A program made the translations under genes and the position numbers. A stretch of 35,485 nt of DNA from Thelocarpon superellum (Eukaryota): NCBI GenBank assembly GCA_026025795.1, contig JAPEUG010000155.1, positions 1 to 35,485 on the forward strand, written 5' to 3'. The notes beneath the pieces were generated by a model. It was not told where the DNA came from. It did not search any database and worked only from the letters and a program-made list of their open reading frames with translations. Positions 12,426 to 26,257 of this stretch are shown here, piece after piece; positions within the stretch are counted from its first letter, which is position 1, and the number at the start of each line of letters is the position of its first letter.

Positions 12426-15122
12426 TTACCTACGCTCATCCTCGCCGCTGTCCTCTTCAACGAGGGCGGGCGTACGACGCTCAGTGCGTCGTTTGGGCCG
12501 TCGCATTCTTGAACTGCTCACGTTGCTCGCGGAGTCGTCGGGCCATACTTCGCTGCTCGCGTCGCCGCCCATGGCCCATCCGGCCTCGGACTCGCTCTCC
12601 CACTCCGCCGTGGGGTTTACGCCCATGCCCATGCCCATGCCCATCCCCATCGCCGAGCTTCTGGCCGGCGTGCCCGCGACGACCTCGATGTCGCGGTGAT
12701 GTATGCCGAGCGCTTGCCGCCGGGCCTGCGTCGCCATGGAGAGGCCGGCTCCACGTTCGCGCAGCGCCGTCCGCACCTCCTCGGCCTGCCGATGCAGTGC
12801 TTCAAAGGCGTCCTCGAGTGCTTCCATGCCGACGTAGATCTCGCGTTCTACCTCGGCGAGAGTTGCAATCTCCGTCTCCTCGTCGTGCGGTACTGGCGGG
12901 CCAGGCGGGGGCGGCGTGCCGTGGGAGGCGGCCGTAGCAAGCACGTGGAAGGGTGTGCTTGATCGGGCCGGACCGTCGACCCCGACCCCAACCCCTGAGA
13001 GGGGAGTCGTTGGTCCTGTGGAGGCCGTCGCACCTCGAATGGCGGGATTGGAATTCCGTGAGGCGGGCCAGGGCGAGGCCATGGTCGATGGGTCTTCGGC
13101 TCCGCTCCAGAGGAAGCCGTCGAAGCGTCCAGAAGTCAAGACGTCCCATTCAGACGAGTTGATACTCGCGAGCGCCGCCAGGAGAGGGTGTAGCGTCGGT
13201 TGCTTCAGGAGAAAGACGGCCGTCTCGGGGTCGCGGGGGGGGGTCGTGAGGCGATAAAGCCGCTGGAGCGCAACACTCGAGCGGACTAGCACCTCGGCAC
13301 GCGAGTTGGACCCCGACCTCGCCAGCCCTGCCTCCCACGCGCCAGGGGGTGCTGGAACGGTCGAGGGAGTGGACAACAAAGCGCTGAAGAGCGGTTGCTC
13401 CTCCTTGCTCAGATGCGTCAGGATGGTAAAGGTCAGGGTTTCGTCGTCAACTTCGATGGGAGGAGCCGCCGCTGTTTCCGGCTGCGCCGTGAGCCACTGG
13501 TCGACGCTCCGCATCGTTTTCTGCGATTGTCGCACGTAGTGCTCGTGAAACTCCTCCGGCACATCGGCGTCGATAGGTGGGACAGAAGCACGACCGCTCT
13601 CCTGGCTTGGGCGGGGTGATCTGGCAGGACCCCAGCCCATCCGCCCGTCGATCTGCTTGATTGGCGCGCCCAGACCGGCAAAGTCGAACGCGGGCCATAT
13701 CGGAAGCTCTCTCCGTCCGCTGACCCACTCCAGCACCTCTCCCCAGCCCACTGCGGGCTCCTCCGATCGCTCGCTCGGCCGCTGCGTCTGACAGATGACG
13801 CACGTACATCCTTCCGCCGAGATATTACGCGCGAAGACATTCTCCAATCGGTCGAGTAGTCTCCGGGCGACGGACTTGTACCCCGTTGCGACGGCGATCG
13901 ACCCGTTCTTCGACAGCACCGTGTGGTAGTCCTGCAGTACGCGCTGAAAGGGGGTAAAGATGGTATCGGCAGCGGGTCCGGCCGGCGCGGGCGTTCGGGA
14001 AGGCGTAGAGAAGTTGGACGAGTGGGTGGGTAGGGCGGATGGTGCGACCGCCAAGAGGGTTCGTGGAGCAGGCCGTATAAGTCCGCCGTTCTGTAGAAGA
14101 TAATCGACCTTGGGAATATTGAGGGGCATGGTTGGGGGTGGAGGCGGTGGCGGCGGCTGGGGCGACAGGAACGCCGCGCCTGGGTTGATGTTGGCCGACG
14201 TTTTGCCGTCTGCGCCATTTAGGTTTGAATACGGTGCGGTCTGTGGCGGCGTTCGAGGTAGTGAATCTTCCACCGAGGCCGACGACGATTCATTCGCAGT
14301 CTCGACGCACGGGGAGGGCTGACGGCGGAGGTGTTGGGGGTGGTCGCGTGCGAGCGACGTGGCATCGGAATCCAACGTCGACTCCGTCTCTCGCGACAAG
14401 TCCGACGAGGCGTCTCGCTCCTTGCCACTGGTCTCCTTATCAGCCGGGCGGCCCTCATTCGACTTTCTTTTCGTGACGGATGGTCGCGGTGGGGACGAGC
14501 GCGACGTCGTTCGACTCGCAAGCTCGCTGCCGCGTTTGGAGGAGGACAGTCTCGAAAACCACGACTGTGAACGCTCTTCCACCACCTTCTTCTTGGTCGT
14601 TCGGGCCCCCTCCGAGCTTCTCCGGGACTTACCCTCCCCTCCTTTGCTCTTGGGCGTCGTCTTGCCCACGGGCCCAGTGGTGGCTGTCAGGGGAGGACTC
14701 GGAGGTGCAGCGCCGCGCGTGGCACCGTCGCTACTGCTCTCCTTCCGCCCCGTCTCGTCCTCTGTACTCTCATCGGCTTTTTCTCTGCGCCCAGCGCCCC
14801 CACCCACGTCGGTGGGATCAGGCGTGATGATGCTGGGAAGCTTCACATCCCGGGCGACGGCTTCTTTGGAATGAGCCTTGGAGAAGGAAGGGTATGGGAG
14901 TGAGGCTCGGCTCGAGGACGGTGAGTCGGTGGAAGCCATCATGCGTCCGTCGGGGTCGACTCGACTGTCTTTCCTCTTCCGACGGGCGGACGGGCTGGTG
15001 GGAGAGGAGGGTCCTAGGTCGGGCGAGGCGAGCGACTTCTTGCTCGAGCGGCCTGCTTTGCGTGTGCGATCTCGATCTTTGGTGTCATCCTTGTCGAGCT
15101 CTCTGGTCTTGATCATGGGCAT
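12426..15122 (-). CDS. Uncharacterised fungal-type protein (~898 aa), intronless: disordered S/R/K-rich N-terminus, CxCxxC motif, C-terminal coiled coil
   Basis: Long uninterrupted ORF; first ATG at 15122 in CCACCATG context. Ordered-looking blocks VDYLLQNGGL, AVATGYKSVARRLLDRLE, CTCVIC, SGRFDGFLWSGA, GMEALEDAFEALH, PDDSASN. Confidence 0.85.
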   Translation of the reverse strand: MPMIKTRELDKDDTKDRDRTRKAGRSSKKSLASPDLGPSSPTSPSARRKRKDSRVDPDGRMMASTDSPSSSRASLPYPSFSKAHSKEAVARDVKLPSIITPDPTDVGGGAGRREKADESTEDETGRKESSSDGATRGAAPPSPPLTATTGPVGKTTPKSKGGEGKSRRSSEGARTTKKKVVEERSQSWFSRLSSSKRGSELASRTTSRSSPPRPSVTKRKSNEGRPADKETSGKERDASSDLSRETESTLDSDATSLARDHPQHLRRQPSPCVETANESSSASVEDSLPRTPPQTAPYSNLNGADGKTSANINPGAAFLSPQPPPPPPPPTMPLNIPKVDYLLQNGGLIRPAPRTLLAVAPSALPTHSSNFSTPSRTPAPAGPAADTIFTPFQRVLQDYHTVLSKNGSIAVATGYKSVARRLLDRLENVFARNISAEGCTCVICQTQRPSERSEEPAVGWGEVLEWVSGRRELPIWPAFDFAGLGAPIKQIDGRMGWGPARSPRPSQESGRASVPPIDADVPEEFHEHYVRQSQKTMRSVDQWLTAQPETAAAPPIEVDDETLTFTILTHLSKEEQPLFSALLSTPSTVPAPPGAWEAGLARSGSNSRAEVLVRSSVALQRLYRLTTPPRDPETAVFLLKQPTLHPLLAALASINSSEWDVLTSGRFDGFLWSGAEDPSTMASPWPASRNSNPAIRGATASTGPTTPLSGVGVGVDGPARSSTPFHVLATAASHGTPPPPGPPVPHDEETEIATLAEVEREIYVGMEALEDAFEALHRQAEEVRTALRERGAGLSMATQARRQALGIHHRDIEVVAGTPARSSAMGMGMGMGMGVNPTAEWESESEAGWAMGGDASSEVWPDDSASNVSSSRMRRPKRRTERRTPALVEEDSGEDERR

Positions 15123-15733
15123 GGTGGATGTTGGTGCAGCCGTGCCCACGGATGGAAGGCGAATGACAACAGCTCGGGGCCGTGACGCAGTCGTGCGGCG
15201 CAGCCGATCAAACCCCGCCGCTGCATGAGCATCGGCCGACCAGCGAAAGCCGACCAGCGGTCGATCAAGTGGCGTAGGGCACTGGAACTAGGGAGCTGGG
15301 CCGACGCGAAGCAAGATGTGCAAGAGCGAATGCGGACACGAGCACTGGTATAGAAAGACAGGATCGAATGGGAGGTCGGGTGGAGAATTGAGTCTCGAAC
15401 GGGATCTTGTGGGCCGCAGCTCAGGCAAAACATGTTTGTTCCTCGCATGCGACCTGGAACTGCCCAGCCATACGCCGAGTGGCTGCAGGGCGTCGTTGCG
15501 AGGGACTTTTTGCCGAGTCTACAGTCGGCCATAGCGGAGCCGTGGGTCACCATGGCTTGATTCGATTGCTCAGACTGGAGCGAGAAGCGATTCTGTCCCG
15601 GCCCGACCGACTATGGTTGGGCACCTGTGTTTCTTCGCCCCTAATCCCAGGCAACCGTATGTCCCCGTCTCAATCGTACCTCTGAATAGATTCGCTCTAG
15701 CTTTACGAGTACACGCCTCTCTCCTGCAACCAG

Positions 15734-16879
15734 TCATGACGTCGCCAGAGTACATGCCGCGTTTTCGTCCCGGCCCTCGTCCATGGCTTCCTCCCAGACA
15801 ATGGTCCCGTCCATGGCGTGCTTCATGAGCTCGTCGCTCGCTCGCGCGCGATGGCCTGTGCGTGGATCCCATTCCCATCCCTCTTTTAACCACATCCATC
15901 GCAAAAACGCTCGTAACTCCTTGTCGAGAGGGACGACGCGCTTCCATTCGGGCTCAAAGTCCGTCGTCGCGGCGTCCTCGCTATTCCATCCGGTCGCGAC
16001 GCCCCGCAGCCGGTCTCGACAGAAGATACGCCAGCTGTCGAGCGCGTACGGTCCGGCAGTGGGGAGATGGGCAATCTCAAAGGCGCCGTCCCGCGCGTCC
16101 TCTGTCTCATCGGGGACAACTCCGCGAGGCTTGATGGCTCGGCCAGCTCCCAAGGTCGGATAGTTGAGCCGCCGGTGCCGACGACCCCGGATGGGGGGAT
16201 CCTCTACCCATGCCTTGGCCAATCTCACATATCGACGCGCGCGCGTGTTCTGCAGCCCCAGGTGACGAATGAGCTCAGCGACGGCTTGCTCGTCGGCCGA
16301 CGCCAGCGCCTCGGGGGTGGGATATGCCTCCATCAGCCGATAGAAGACGGGAATCGCCTGCAGGCCCCGCGTGCGATTGAGGAATGTGACGGCAACGAGA
16401 AGTCTGAACGGATCCTCGGCCAGTCTTTCTTGCACCAGACCAAAGACCGCACTTGATATGGGCGTAAAAGGGATGCAGGACGCCGTCCCCGCGAGCGACC
16501 GTCCATTCTTCGCCCCAAGCGCAGATGTAAAGTACGGTGAATGCACCGGCATCCGCGGGCGTTGGGAGCGCTTTCGTCGAACCATCGGCGTGGGTGCGTC
16601 AATGCAATCCTGTGCATGCCCATGCAGCCGGTGGGTGCTAAGAGTCTGCGGCGGCGACGGAGGACGGACGGGGCTCGGGGGGGTCACCTCTGGATCAGAA
16701 GCTGCCGTGCTGGTCTCCGAATCTTCCTCTTCCTCTTCCTGCCTTGGTGGATTCTTATGGCGGGCCCCCTCATCACTAGTCATGTTCGTGAATCCTTGGG
16801 GGTCCAAAAAACCGTGGCATTGGCGGTATGAAGGTGCTGCAGGGTCCGTATATGTTTGCTCTTCTTCCCAGAATTCCCG
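15734..16879 (-). CDS. MBD4-like HhH-GPD (G:T/G:U mismatch) DNA glycosylase, catalytic part; frame open from 16879, first ATG at 16783
   Basis: FGLVQERLAEDPFRLLVAVTFLNRT, YPTPEALA, LGLQNTRA, HhH-like LPTAGPYALDSWRIFC, and EWKRVVPLDKEL containing the Asp expected to be catalytic in MBD4-type enzymes. Confidence 0.88.
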   Translation of the reverse strand, partial: REFWEEEQTYTDPAAPSYRQCHGFLDPQGFTNMTSDEGARHKNPPRQEEEEEDSETSTAASDPEVTPPSPVRPPSPPQTLSTHRLHGHAQDCIDAPTPMVRRKRSQRPRMPVHSPYFTSALGAKNGRSLAGTASCIPFTPISSAVFGLVQERLAEDPFRLLVAVTFLNRTRGLQAIPVFYRLMEAYPTPEALASADEQAVAELIRHLGLQNTRARRYVRLAKAWVEDPPIRGRRHRRLNYPTLGAGRAIKPRGVVPDETEDARDGAFEIAHLPTAGPYALDSWRIFCRDRLRGVATGWNSEDAATTDFEPEWKRVVPLDKELRAFLRWMWLKEGWEWDPRTGHRARASDELMKHAMDGTIVWEEAMDEGRDENAACTLATS

Positions 16880-17520
16880 TCATCTTTCGCGGGAAGCGCG
16901 TGGGGTTTTGGTATCAGTCCATCATGACCAACTTTTCCCAGCACCTTCCCGGACTCGCTGTCCCGGATCCGCATGAGCTCGCCCCCCACGGTCCGGCCTT
17001 CTCCTCGCGCCATGTCAATCCACTCGAGAATTTGCATGAAGCGCCGCGCCTGCCGGAACTCGAGCCCGGCAAGCTTAAGGTCCACTTTTGCCGCCTCTGA
17101 GGTCCAGCCCAAAGCTCGCGCCTGGTCGTAGATGTCTCGGGTGTACTTCCGACAGGCCGAGGTCATTGGGGGGCTCAAGGGCTCGCGGTAGAGCTCGCGG
17201 TAGAGAGGACGTTGCTGCCCGTATTGTTTGAGTTGGGAATAAGGGTCGTCGTCACTGGCGCTTTCGAAAACGACATCGAGGTCAATTGCCACATCCGTGG
17301 ACCGTTTGCGGCGACGAGGCGAGTCGATGACCCGCTGGGCCATTTCAATCTCCTCTGGAGGTGCCGCGTCAACCATGGCTCGGAACTCCTGCTTTGACAT
17401 GCCGTGGGTCTCGAACTGTTCGTAAAGCTCCTCGGCCACCGAACTGTGATCATCCATACTCTGATTCACATCCCCGCCACTTTCTTTCCCCATGCTTGGT
17501 GTGCGACTCGGTGAGGTCAT
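16780..17520 (-). CDS. 246-aa ORF overlapping the glycosylase frame; probably the N-terminal half of the same gene
   Basis: ATG at 17520 (CACAATG). Protein-like helical block RKYTRDIYDQARALGWTSEAAK. Overlaps the downstream open frame by about 100 nt, and no consensus intron joining the two was found. Confidence 0.6.
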   Translation of the reverse strand: MTSPSRTPSMGKESGGDVNQSMDDHSSVAEELYEQFETHGMSKQEFRAMVDAAPPEEIEMAQRVIDSPRRRKRSTDVAIDLDVVFESASDDDPYSQLKQYGQQRPLYRELYREPLSPPMTSACRKYTRDIYDQARALGWTSEAAKVDLKLAGLEFRQARRFMQILEWIDMARGEGRTVGGELMRIRDSESGKVLGKVGHDGLIPKPHALPAKDDGNSGKKSKHIRTLQHLHTANATVFWTPKDSRT

Positions 17521-18136: not shown

Positions 18137-19155
18137 TCACGCAAAGGCCAACGTCTTCTTGATCTCCGCGATGGCCTTGCCTGGATTTAAGCCCTTAGGA
18201 CACGTCCTCGAGCAGTTGAGGATGGTGTGGCACCGGTAGAGGCTCATGGAGTTATCCAGTGCCGACTTGCGCTCTTCCGTGCGCTCGTCGCGAGAATCGG
18301 CGAGCCAGCGATACGACTGAAGCAGAACGGCGGGGCCAAGATACTCCTCCGAGTTCCACCAGTACGAGGGACATGACGTAGAGCAGCAAGCGCACAGAAT
18401 GCACTCGTAGAGACCGTCCAACTTCCGTCGCTCTTCCGGACTCTGCCGATACTCACGGCCCTAGCACGCTCGTTAGTCATGACCGGAACGGCCTCGATGG
18501 AGGGCGCACGCACATCTGGTGCAGGGGATGTCCGCTGCAGATATGGCTTGATCGACTTGTATTGCTTGTAGAATTGAGTGAGGTCCGGGACAAGATCCTT
18601 GACCACAAAAGTGTGCGGCAATGGATAGATGCGGCTCTCCTGCTTCGTGTCGCTTGGGATCCGGCCTACCCAATCATGTCAGTACCGAGCCTCCGTATCG
18701 TCCGCTTCCCGTCGGGATAGGGCGCGCCACGTACAGAGACAAGCCAGCGTGTTGACGCCGTCAATGTTCATGGCACAGCTTCCACAGATTCCCTCACGAC
18801 AGCTCCGACGGAAAGTCAGAGTCGGATCCACTTCGTTCTTGATCCGGATCAACGCGTCGAGCATCATGGGTCCCGTCCGATTTAAGTCGAGCGTATACGT
18901 CTGCATCTTTGGCTTGGACGAGGGATCTTCGGGAGACCAGCGGTAGATGTGAAAGGTCTTGATCTTGGCCTCGCTCGATGGACTAGGCTCGGCGACGGTC
19001 GACGTCTTCGATGGCGGCACAGGCGAGCGTGATGGGCGAGTCTCCGCACCATCGGCGACTTTGACCGTGGCAAGCGATCGCCGCGCCATGGAAGACGAGA
19101 TCCGAGGGCGGGAGGCGGCCAAGAGGCGAGTGGTGGAAGAGCGGAGCGCGGCCAT
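18137..19155 (-). CDS. SDH2: Succinate dehydrogenase iron-sulfur subunit, mitochondrial precursor (~298 aa); exons 19155-18735, 18665-18514, 18460-18137
   Basis: Fe-S motifs [24 protein letters not shown] and [12 protein letters not shown]; Arg/Ser-rich presequence; introns 18666-18734 and 18461-18513 have canonical signals. Confidence 0.98.
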
Positions 19156-19420
19156 CCTGGACCTGTAATGCACGAATCGAACCGCCGACGAGGCCGAAGG
19201 TCAGCCCCACGTATGCGTGGAGTGACGGGTGGAGGATTCCAAGGAGCGATTGGAATCGAGAGGCAGTGATACAGAGGTGCGAGGCTCCTGATATTGGAGA
19301 TCTGAATTCCTCCGGCGGTGAGAGATCTGAGGGTATATGTAGGAAGAGATCGAGGAGGCGATGATGCGACAATCTCGGGCGTCATGCCCCTCGGCTGAAG
19401 AGTGGTGAGGTAAGACGGGT

Positions 19421-25328: not shown

Positions 25329-26257
25329 GCTTTCGCGTCAAATCCTTCGCGGCAGCACTTGGCCCAAGGAAGCCTACGTGAGGAGGAACAAAGACAGAGG
25401 GCGACGAGTCAATGGCTTATAAACGCTCATGACCTTCGCAGATACGAGATCATCATCGAGACGGATTGTCCCCGTGGCAGATTGAATTCACAATATTCTG
25501 TAACAAAGGCTCTCCGGGTGGACGGCATCTTTATCCCGAGCCAGCATTGGCGGCCCTGCACATCATCGCGAACATGCCGACCACGAGACCAATCAGGTCG
25601 CCCGCCCGAGTGCCGGAACCTAGAGTCAGATCGACCGGCCGTAAATCCGCTAATCGCCGTGCCCTCTCTTCGGAAGTCCAACCTCTCCCATGCCGCGTTC
25701 GAAAAGGGACAACCAGGGCTTTTGGCGGAGGCCAGTCCGCATGCTTGAGCAAAGCATGCAGTAGCGCGAGCTGAAAGCGAATCAATCGCGAAGCTTTTTC
25801 GCCATGCGTTTCGGGCACGCTATGACGGCATGCGCCCTTGGCTTCCGTCCTAACCGATGGAGGCTCGGGGTGCGACCGAGGCCGAGATACCTCTGGGAGT
25901 GGTTGCCGTAGCGTCCTTTAGCAGGTACCTGCAATCGCTAGTGACTCACGGTGGGCCGACGACCGGACGAGCATTTCGTCCGGGCGCCACATTGGAGCCG
26001 CTGATCCGACCGATACGAGCTTTTACCACGTGGGAAACATCGCTACGACCCTCGTCTGGAAGGCCTGACAGCGGTCGAGATTCAGCGGCGATCAGAAATC
26101 AGGCGCTATGTCAGAGATCAGGCGATCGTATCCCAGACGGTAAAGGAGAGCGGTGTGCGCTCGGCGCTATTGCCTCTACCAAAACAGGCGGACGAGCTTG
26201 GGAAGGACGTAAGGAGTCACGTTTTCGCTTGTGATGCCCCTCTCTTTTCATTGCTGC

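Follow-up and report, generated by a model that had tools for sequence, protein, structure and literature searches.

A probable programmed -1 ribosomal frameshift, with a kink-turn-like RNA element, conserved in the MBD4-like glycosylase gene of Thelocarpon superellum and its relatives

Programmed -1 ribosomal frameshifting is known mostly from viruses and, to our knowledge, very few chromosomal genes need such a shift. In the literature found for filamentous fungi, YIP3 alone has been described in detail (PMC3777964). The -1 frameshift of PaYIP3, in Podospora anserina and other Pezizomycotina, was demonstrated by experiment and has a spacer of 2 nt (PMC3777964). Published lists of viral -1 sites count the first triplets G_GU and G_GA among the exceptions to the pattern X_XXY_YYZ (PMC5009743). 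A second motif of relevance here is the kink-turn, in which a 3-nt bulge is followed by tandem G-A pairs; the kink-turns of U4 snRNA and of box C/D RNAs are bound by 15.5K/Snu13/L7Ae (PMC10573300, PMC5579392).

The locus described here lies in a 35,485-nt stretch of T. superellum DNA (assembly GCA_026025795.1, contig JAPEUG010000155.1), referred to as the window, and its features are collected in Table 1. ORF1 and the glycosylase frame are offset by -1 and overlap by 32 codons, and a -1 shift at the heptamer would join 238 codons of the one to 357 of the other, giving 595. The initial annotation of this DNA had reported both frames, their overlap, the register of the heptamer and a fusion of about 595 aa, and all of these hold on recomputation. 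The glycosylase frame matches PF00730 (Pfam, E 4e-9) and the solved structures of the human and mouse MBD4 glycosylase domains (E 1.5e-19), and a search of the T. superellum genome gave one match. The motifs G-x-Y-x-x-DS(W/Y)RIFC and EWK align between the predicted protein and MBD4, with the Asp of DSWRIFC opposite that of DSYRIFC; this Asp we take to be the catalytic residue in MBD4-type enzymes. Judged by these alignments the -1 frame encodes an MBD4-like HhH-GPD glycosylase with intact motifs. It differs from MBD4 in having a fungal helical N-terminal domain, encoded in another frame, and no methyl-CpG-binding domain was found in the predicted protein. Some glycosylase homologues (P0031, P0039, P0074, P0079) have Pfam matches to C2H2 zinc fingers.

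Table 1. Features of the glycosylase locus, in coordinates of the window
Feature	Position	Strand	Remark
ORF1 (0 frame), 246 aa, short product	17520-16780	minus	homologous to the N-terminus of long MBD4-like fungal proteins
Conserved all-helical N-terminal domain, about aa 26-187	16960-17445	minus	no Pfam family, no clear fold match
-1 frame: disordered linker and predicted MBD4-like HhH-GPD glycosylase	15734-16879	minus	single copy in genome
Slippery heptamer G_GUU_UUU	16807-16813	minus	in ORF1 frame
C stem, 5' strand CCCCC	16798-16802	minus	invariant CC is 16799-16798
Kink-turn-like bulged strand: 3-nt bulge AAG, GA, then UUCAC	16788-16797	minus	
Apical loop of 11 nt, against 15 nt in relatives, with invariant N-UGAC	16777-16787	minus	
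Non-bulged strand GUGAU-GA-GG(GGG), closing NC stem, tandem GA pairs and C stem	16765-16776	minus	
AUGA: ORF1 stop UGA overlapping glycosylase-frame AUG (16783-16781)	16780-16783	minus	would give 349 aa
GCCAU, possibly paired with the loop (AUGAC, 4 of 5 pairs)	16757-16761	minus	inferred
GAAUCC, 3' arm of stem 2 of the initial annotation	16749-16754	minus	not positionally conserved

The N-terminal domain of ORF1 is predicted by AlphaFold to consist of confident helices (mean pLDDT 81.5). ORF1 belongs to no family in Pfam or the protein atlas, and fold searches with its domain returned generic helical matches that were not informative (best Z 6.6, Foldseek E 1.4). Among 1.84 billion representatives ORF1 matches the N-terminus of seven other proteins, five with a C-terminal glycosylase and two that end without one. 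Because it matches the N-termini of glycosylase-bearing proteins, ORF1 and the glycosylase frame are regarded as parts of the same gene. A dedicated search found no stand-alone homologues of ORF1 size. The linker is short in T. superellum, and a search through the three frames did not find the GWDTDEMEG-type motif that relatives have. Three short models (P0008, P0014, P0015), in which the glycosylase is joined to no more of the N-terminal domain than its first helical hairpin, are possibly artefacts of intron prediction. Upstream lies the gene for the iron-sulfur subunit of succinate dehydrogenase (18137-19200, minus strand; Fer2_3 and Fer4 matches) and downstream a 953-codon ORF without a Pfam match (12426-15287, minus strand).

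The frame break is genomic and not an error. A contig from run X1, at 145x and probably the source of the assembly, spans the junction with no difference and no gap. The same break is found in strain X4, 2%-divergent and from the moss metagenome of a separate study, where one 344-nt contig of depth 2.6 covers 16650-16987 and differs from the reference by eight substitutions and a 6-nt in-frame insertion at 16721, with no indel in the overlap. The evidence from X1 and X4 consists of assembled contigs, not raw reads; runs X2 and X3, which share near-identical contigs and do not cover the junction, were used for variants alone. Variants of ORF1 in the moss strains look near neutral, being synonymous in three of 13 codons, in low-depth contigs.

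The public proteins of relatives are continuous across the junction, in a comparison made at the level of protein models. The element described below is read in the 0 frame by two of them (P0123, P0125) and in the -1 frame by four (P0003, P0006, P0121, P0124), a mixture that would be expected from gene predictors crossing a break at arbitrary places. P0123, which is from Caeruleum and is one of the two ORF1 homologues that end without a glycosylase, has the C-terminus FHSPKDSLK*, in the same register and with the same stop position as the FWTPKDSRT* of T. superellum ORF1, and this variant is therefore common to the two. A shared break hidden by gene prediction is thereby suggested. A peptide profile of class A (defined below) gave weak scores against named relatives (P0124, E 0.045; P0003, E 0.74), and the match at protein level is suggestive. 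P0121 and P0005 come from one 12,654-nt contig and resemble the halves of a Peltula-like gene split downstream of the element.

The offset is conserved. Of 148 metagenome loci with a glycosylase core the best 80 were compared, and their N-terminal domains were sought with an HMM for which only database proteins and the T. superellum sequence had been used (threshold E<0.01). The domain was found in the frame that needs a -1 shift at 29 of 30 loci, in frame at one (L075) and never in the third frame; after near-duplicates were merged the -1 offset stood at 16 of 17. At the 19 junctions listed for ORF length, the upstream ORFs have 271-836 codons. Either of two RNA elements marks 41 of the 80 loci, class A 26 (10 distinct sequences) and class B 15 (12 distinct and one cut), while 16 end before the junction and 23 have neither element. 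Three of these 23 retain a long ORF offset by -1; the other 20, a few of which have little upstream DNA, show neither the N-terminal domain nor the offset ORF. Dothideomycete-like loci at L026:2827-2869, L049:4371-4389 and L051:1466-1532 have neither class but retain the long upstream ORF in its -1 register, with an AUGA overlap in L049 and a GTAAGC donor inside the overlap in L051.

Placed by a FastTree tree and by their nearest named proteins, the class A loci fall near Pleopsidium, Acarospora and Blastomyces, and the class B loci mostly near Hyaloscypha, Rhexocercosporidium, Lachnellula and Bisporella. From the class labels of these genera we take class A to be Lecanoromycete- and Eurotiomycete-like and class B to be mostly Leotiomycete-like. 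Chaetothyriales-like and several Sordariomycete-like loci have neither class, and other clades show stand-alone glycosylase ORFs. In L075 (5568-5640) a full class A element is present and the gene runs in one frame through a 7-nt spacer, so that either the shift has been lost in evolution or one base in a C run is wrong. In three divergent pairs synonymous change is in excess in the 0 frame before the junction and in the -1 frame after it (for L013/L024, 35/56 vs 11/53 upstream and 47/28 vs 11/67 downstream); four close pairs had too few changes or no frame signal.

A slippery run stands at every distinct junction. There are 22 of these, namely T. superellum, nine of class A and 12 of class B, L075 being left out as in frame. 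In all 22 a UUU or AAA core is invariant, the heptamer stands in the 0 frame and one of the two RNA elements lies 3' of the run. The heptamers of class A relatives are G_GGU_UUU, G_GAU_UUU, G_GAU_UUC and G_CAU_UUU, and the patterns are G_NNU_UUY for class A and N_NNA_AAM for class B; many P-site triplets in relatives (G_CA, G_UC) are non-canonical. At all 22 junctions the heptamer has a 0-frame stop 0-8 codons behind it and, 1-43 codons ahead of it, a stop in the -1 frame, so that the window for a shift is tightly bracketed. Taken alone the signal in T. superellum is modest: a slippery heptamer would be expected by chance in about 6% of 32-codon overlaps, and in stability the local fold does not stand out from shuffled sequences (z -0.01 to -0.85). 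The significance of the site comes from its conservation in relatives and not from local statistics.

In class A the element downstream of the heptamer is a hairpin. Nine sequences were aligned without gaps, and RNAalifold returned, unprompted, a hairpin whose 2-bp base and 4+3-bp upper stem are separated by a 6-by-3 internal loop. In its lower part this hairpin is also the minimum-energy fold of T. superellum itself. The internal loop reads CC-RAU-GA / GA-GG in the alignment, and the pattern CC-NNN-GA / GA-GG is found in all 11 class A sequences. Double changes occur in six of the 14 hairpin pairs (16 cells), and the covariation is 0.437, against 0.199 when shuffled (0/500) and at most 0.183 when slid, for nine sequences and with shuffles that ignore relatedness. 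The four NC helix pairs 22-44, 23-43, 24-42 and 25-41 are paired in 9/9, with four, zero, two and four double changes respectively. C15, U18 and G48 are invariant in the nine aligned sequences although they are third codon positions of the -1 frame. After the GA pairs the next pair is U-U in seven of the nine and in T. superellum, a trait of box C/D-like kink-turns. On the alignment, the class A hairpin fits the kink-turn consensus of C stem, bulge, GA pairs and NC helix, and it may fold as a true kink-turn. A search of Rfam gave nothing near a gathering score for the element. The loop UGA (16779-16783 region, columns 31-35) reads as a stop in the 0 frame throughout class A, even after an earlier stop, and the U in it never varies although no fixed partner pairs with it. 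A palindrome ACUAGU at 16779-16774 on the minus strand is not conserved in relatives and is probably due to chance.

The T. superellum copy is divergent. A covariance model built without it ranks 16813-16753 first of five matches on both strands of the 35 kb, with a match that starts exactly at the heptamer (17.4 bits, rough E 0.026). A loose class A sequence pattern also matches at 26098 (minus strand), where the covariance model gives no match. Other class A sequences score 56-78 bits with the class A model, against 17 bits for T. superellum, which diverges in its bulge (AAG, with G at position 3), in a spacer longer by 1 nt, in a loop shorter by 4 nt and in an altered tail. At the third bulge position of kink-turns U is preferred. 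The heptamer, CC/GG, both GA, the U-U, four NC pairs and UGAC are kept, and the net change of -3 nt in length preserves both frames. The invariant CC follows the heptamer by 7 nt, compared with 6 nt in nine of 10 distinct relatives; the distance to the base of the stem is 4 nt, as short as the initial annotation had it.

Two further pairings have been considered. The class A loop can pair with the tail as (U)GAC/GUC(A), for which 89% of cells are paired, no double change is seen and two pairs never vary. Near-invariance of the loop GAC and the tail GUC fits a pseudoknot but yields no covariation, and such a loop-tail pseudoknot is perhaps present; the GUC(A) of relatives lies two bases nearer than GCCAU does in T. 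superellum. The initial annotation had instead proposed an H-type topology, in which CCCCC pairs with GGGGG (16769-16765) as stem 1 and GGAUUC (16795-16790) with GAAUCC as stem 2. The sequences of both stems are present, but stem 2 has no equivalent at that offset in relatives, where its nearest analogue has 78% of cells paired and a covariation of 0.108, below that of a slid control. Stem 2 was rejected as a conserved fold; it uses bases that the conserved hairpin needs and is thus excluded by it, and could be a local alternative fold in T. superellum.

At the same junction in another clade (L002, L009-11, L013, L015, L016, L018, L020, L021, L024, L029, L031, L037, L066) lies class B, which is unrelated to class A. 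It is an A-rich slip site (G_GGA_AAA or N_NCA_AAA) followed by a plain H-type pseudoknot with stems CACUC/GAGUG and CCAGG/CCUGG, in which 94% of cells are paired and two pairs show double changes. The occurrence of two unrelated RNA cassettes at one junction argues that the shift itself is selected.

Of the systems described, YIP3 is the closest. It too is a chromosomal gene of filamentous ascomycetes with a short upstream product and a long -1 fusion, an imperfect U-rich slip site, a short spacer, and conservation with compensatory changes and occasional loss. It is another gene, however, and in the glycosylase gene the shifted part is the conserved catalytic domain and there are two unrelated cassettes, one of them kink-turn-like, with the shift predicted from sequence. 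T. superellum keeps the known YIP3 -1 site, which was counted in favour of frameshifting at the glycosylase gene. At that locus (L082, G000:C438, minus strand, about 1510-1460) a 233-codon ORF overlaps a 460-codon ORF at -1, with U_UUU_UCC and a downstream sequence that resembles the published Podospora element; the class A model gives no match there. The parallel with cardioviruses drawn in the initial annotation extends to the heptamer. G_GUU_UUU and G_GAU_UUU fit the exceptions listed for cardio-, luteo-, umbra- and dianthoviruses, whereas cardiovirus spacers are 11-14 nt and cardiovirus shifting depends on infection (PMC5009743); in T. superellum the site is in a host gene with the shorter distances given above. 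The class A hairpin resembles the kink-turns of U4 snRNA and box C/D RNAs in its canonical stem, 3-nt bulge, tandem G-A/A-G and G at -1n, in 11/11 sequences, and differs in lying inside a coding region, directly after a slip site, and in having a canonical stem of just two invariant pairs.

The initial annotation had held that one base missing from the T6 or C5 run would explain the split equally well. Evidence at the level of contigs does hide rare variants, but the 145x source contig is gapless, neither it nor the independent strain X4 has an indel at the site and the same break occurs in 29 of 30 relatives, so that an assembly error is scarcely credible. Transcriptional slippage or editing could add a base in the U or A run and leave the mRNA itself in frame, and the homopolymers at the site (T6 in T. 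superellum) would suit this. These runs are just 4-6 nt long and alternate between U and A, however, and the structure stands at a ribosome-like spacing and covaries as RNA; we judge this most improbable. The frame might also be restored by a cryptic or regulated intron, whose splicing a kink-turn could regulate. The public T. superellum model P0001 bridges the break in this way, with an intron from 16932 (GTTGGT, a passable donor) to 16739 (CAG); three YAG/AAG acceptors are in phase and the models of relatives are continuous. Yet this intron lacks a CTRAY branch site, it would excise the conserved RNA element, and the models of relatives read that element in differing frames. As the initial annotation had noted, the T. 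superellum junction has no consensus intron: none that combines donor, branch site and YAG would restore the frame there, and only two of the 22 distinct junctions offer such an intron, at unrelated places. An intron is very unlikely.

It is also unlikely that the glycosylase is made separately, by stop/restart or by independent initiation from the N-UG of the loop (AUG 16783), with the hairpin serving reinitiation. The AUGA overlap, absent from the initial annotation as was the kink-turn-like fold, is the restart motif of victoriviruses (PMC6631646) and recurs in L048 and L049, and the loop codon is AUG, GUG or UUG in 11/11 class A sequences, with a U that is constant although its pairing partner varies. 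Against this, the 0 frame ends before the loop UGA in eight of 10 class A junctions, and the victorivirus pseudoknot lies immediately upstream of the AUGA, whereas in T. superellum the fold surrounds it. A restart would also leave unexplained why the G...UUU run is invariant and keeps a distance of 6-7 nt from the stem, and four of the 22 junctions have no -1-frame AUG ahead of the catalytic core. Finally, the element may be ancestrally real and now decaying in this lineage, with the glycosylase made from AUG 16783 or from a downstream promoter. The low class A model score, the near-neutral ORF1 variants, the lost GWDTDEMEG-type motif, the short linker and the stand-alone glycosylase ORFs of other clades would agree with decay. 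The retention of heptamer, CC/GG, GA, U-U, NC pairs and UGAC, the preservation of the frames and the sharing of this variant with Caeruleum P0123 speak against decay, and X4 has no listed difference in 16813-16765, where about one would be expected, so that this last point is weak. We regard decay as distinctly improbable.

The best reading, and a likely one, is that this chromosomal gene uses a conserved, programmed -1 ribosomal frameshift, because the offset, the slippery run and the RNA element are conserved and the covariance model finds 16813. The possibility raised by the initial annotation is thus supported, relatives keeping the break and the slippery run at a fixed distance from an RNA element. 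The shift itself, its rate and its purpose we infer from these comparisons. Ribosomes would translate ORF1 and most would terminate shortly past the slippery site, giving the 246-aa helical-domain protein. A fraction would pause at the fold directly downstream, slip back one base on G_GUU_UUU and make the 595-aa fusion ending in the MBD4-like glycosylase as a minority product. The likely effect would be a low ratio of glycosylase to short protein, fixed or regulated, and the repair enzyme is probably made only when the ribosome takes this -1 step. The literature search, mostly without subscription journals, found no paper on a frameshift in this gene; the table of 14 candidate recoded genes in PMC2441463 may include an orthologue.

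More tentatively, and with rather less chance of being right than wrong, class A may be a natural kink-turn frameshift switch gated by a host protein of the L7Ae family (Snu13/15.5K or eL30), the unrelated pseudoknot of the second clade giving the same control. Such a protein would bind and bend the hairpin, perhaps docking the loop on the tail, and so set the amount of glycosylase. The literature search found no natural kink-turn frameshift stimulator, and the class A cassette fits a protein-binding motif for which no report in that role was found. In public gene models this glycosylase family is probably represented with spurious introns or with starts that are cut short. The cassettes measure about 60 nt each, and the candidate is kept across several fungal classes and would act on a DNA-repair enzyme that is single-copy in T. 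superellum. If the switch reading is true, a chromosomal gene would here depend on a -1 frameshift gated by a host protein.
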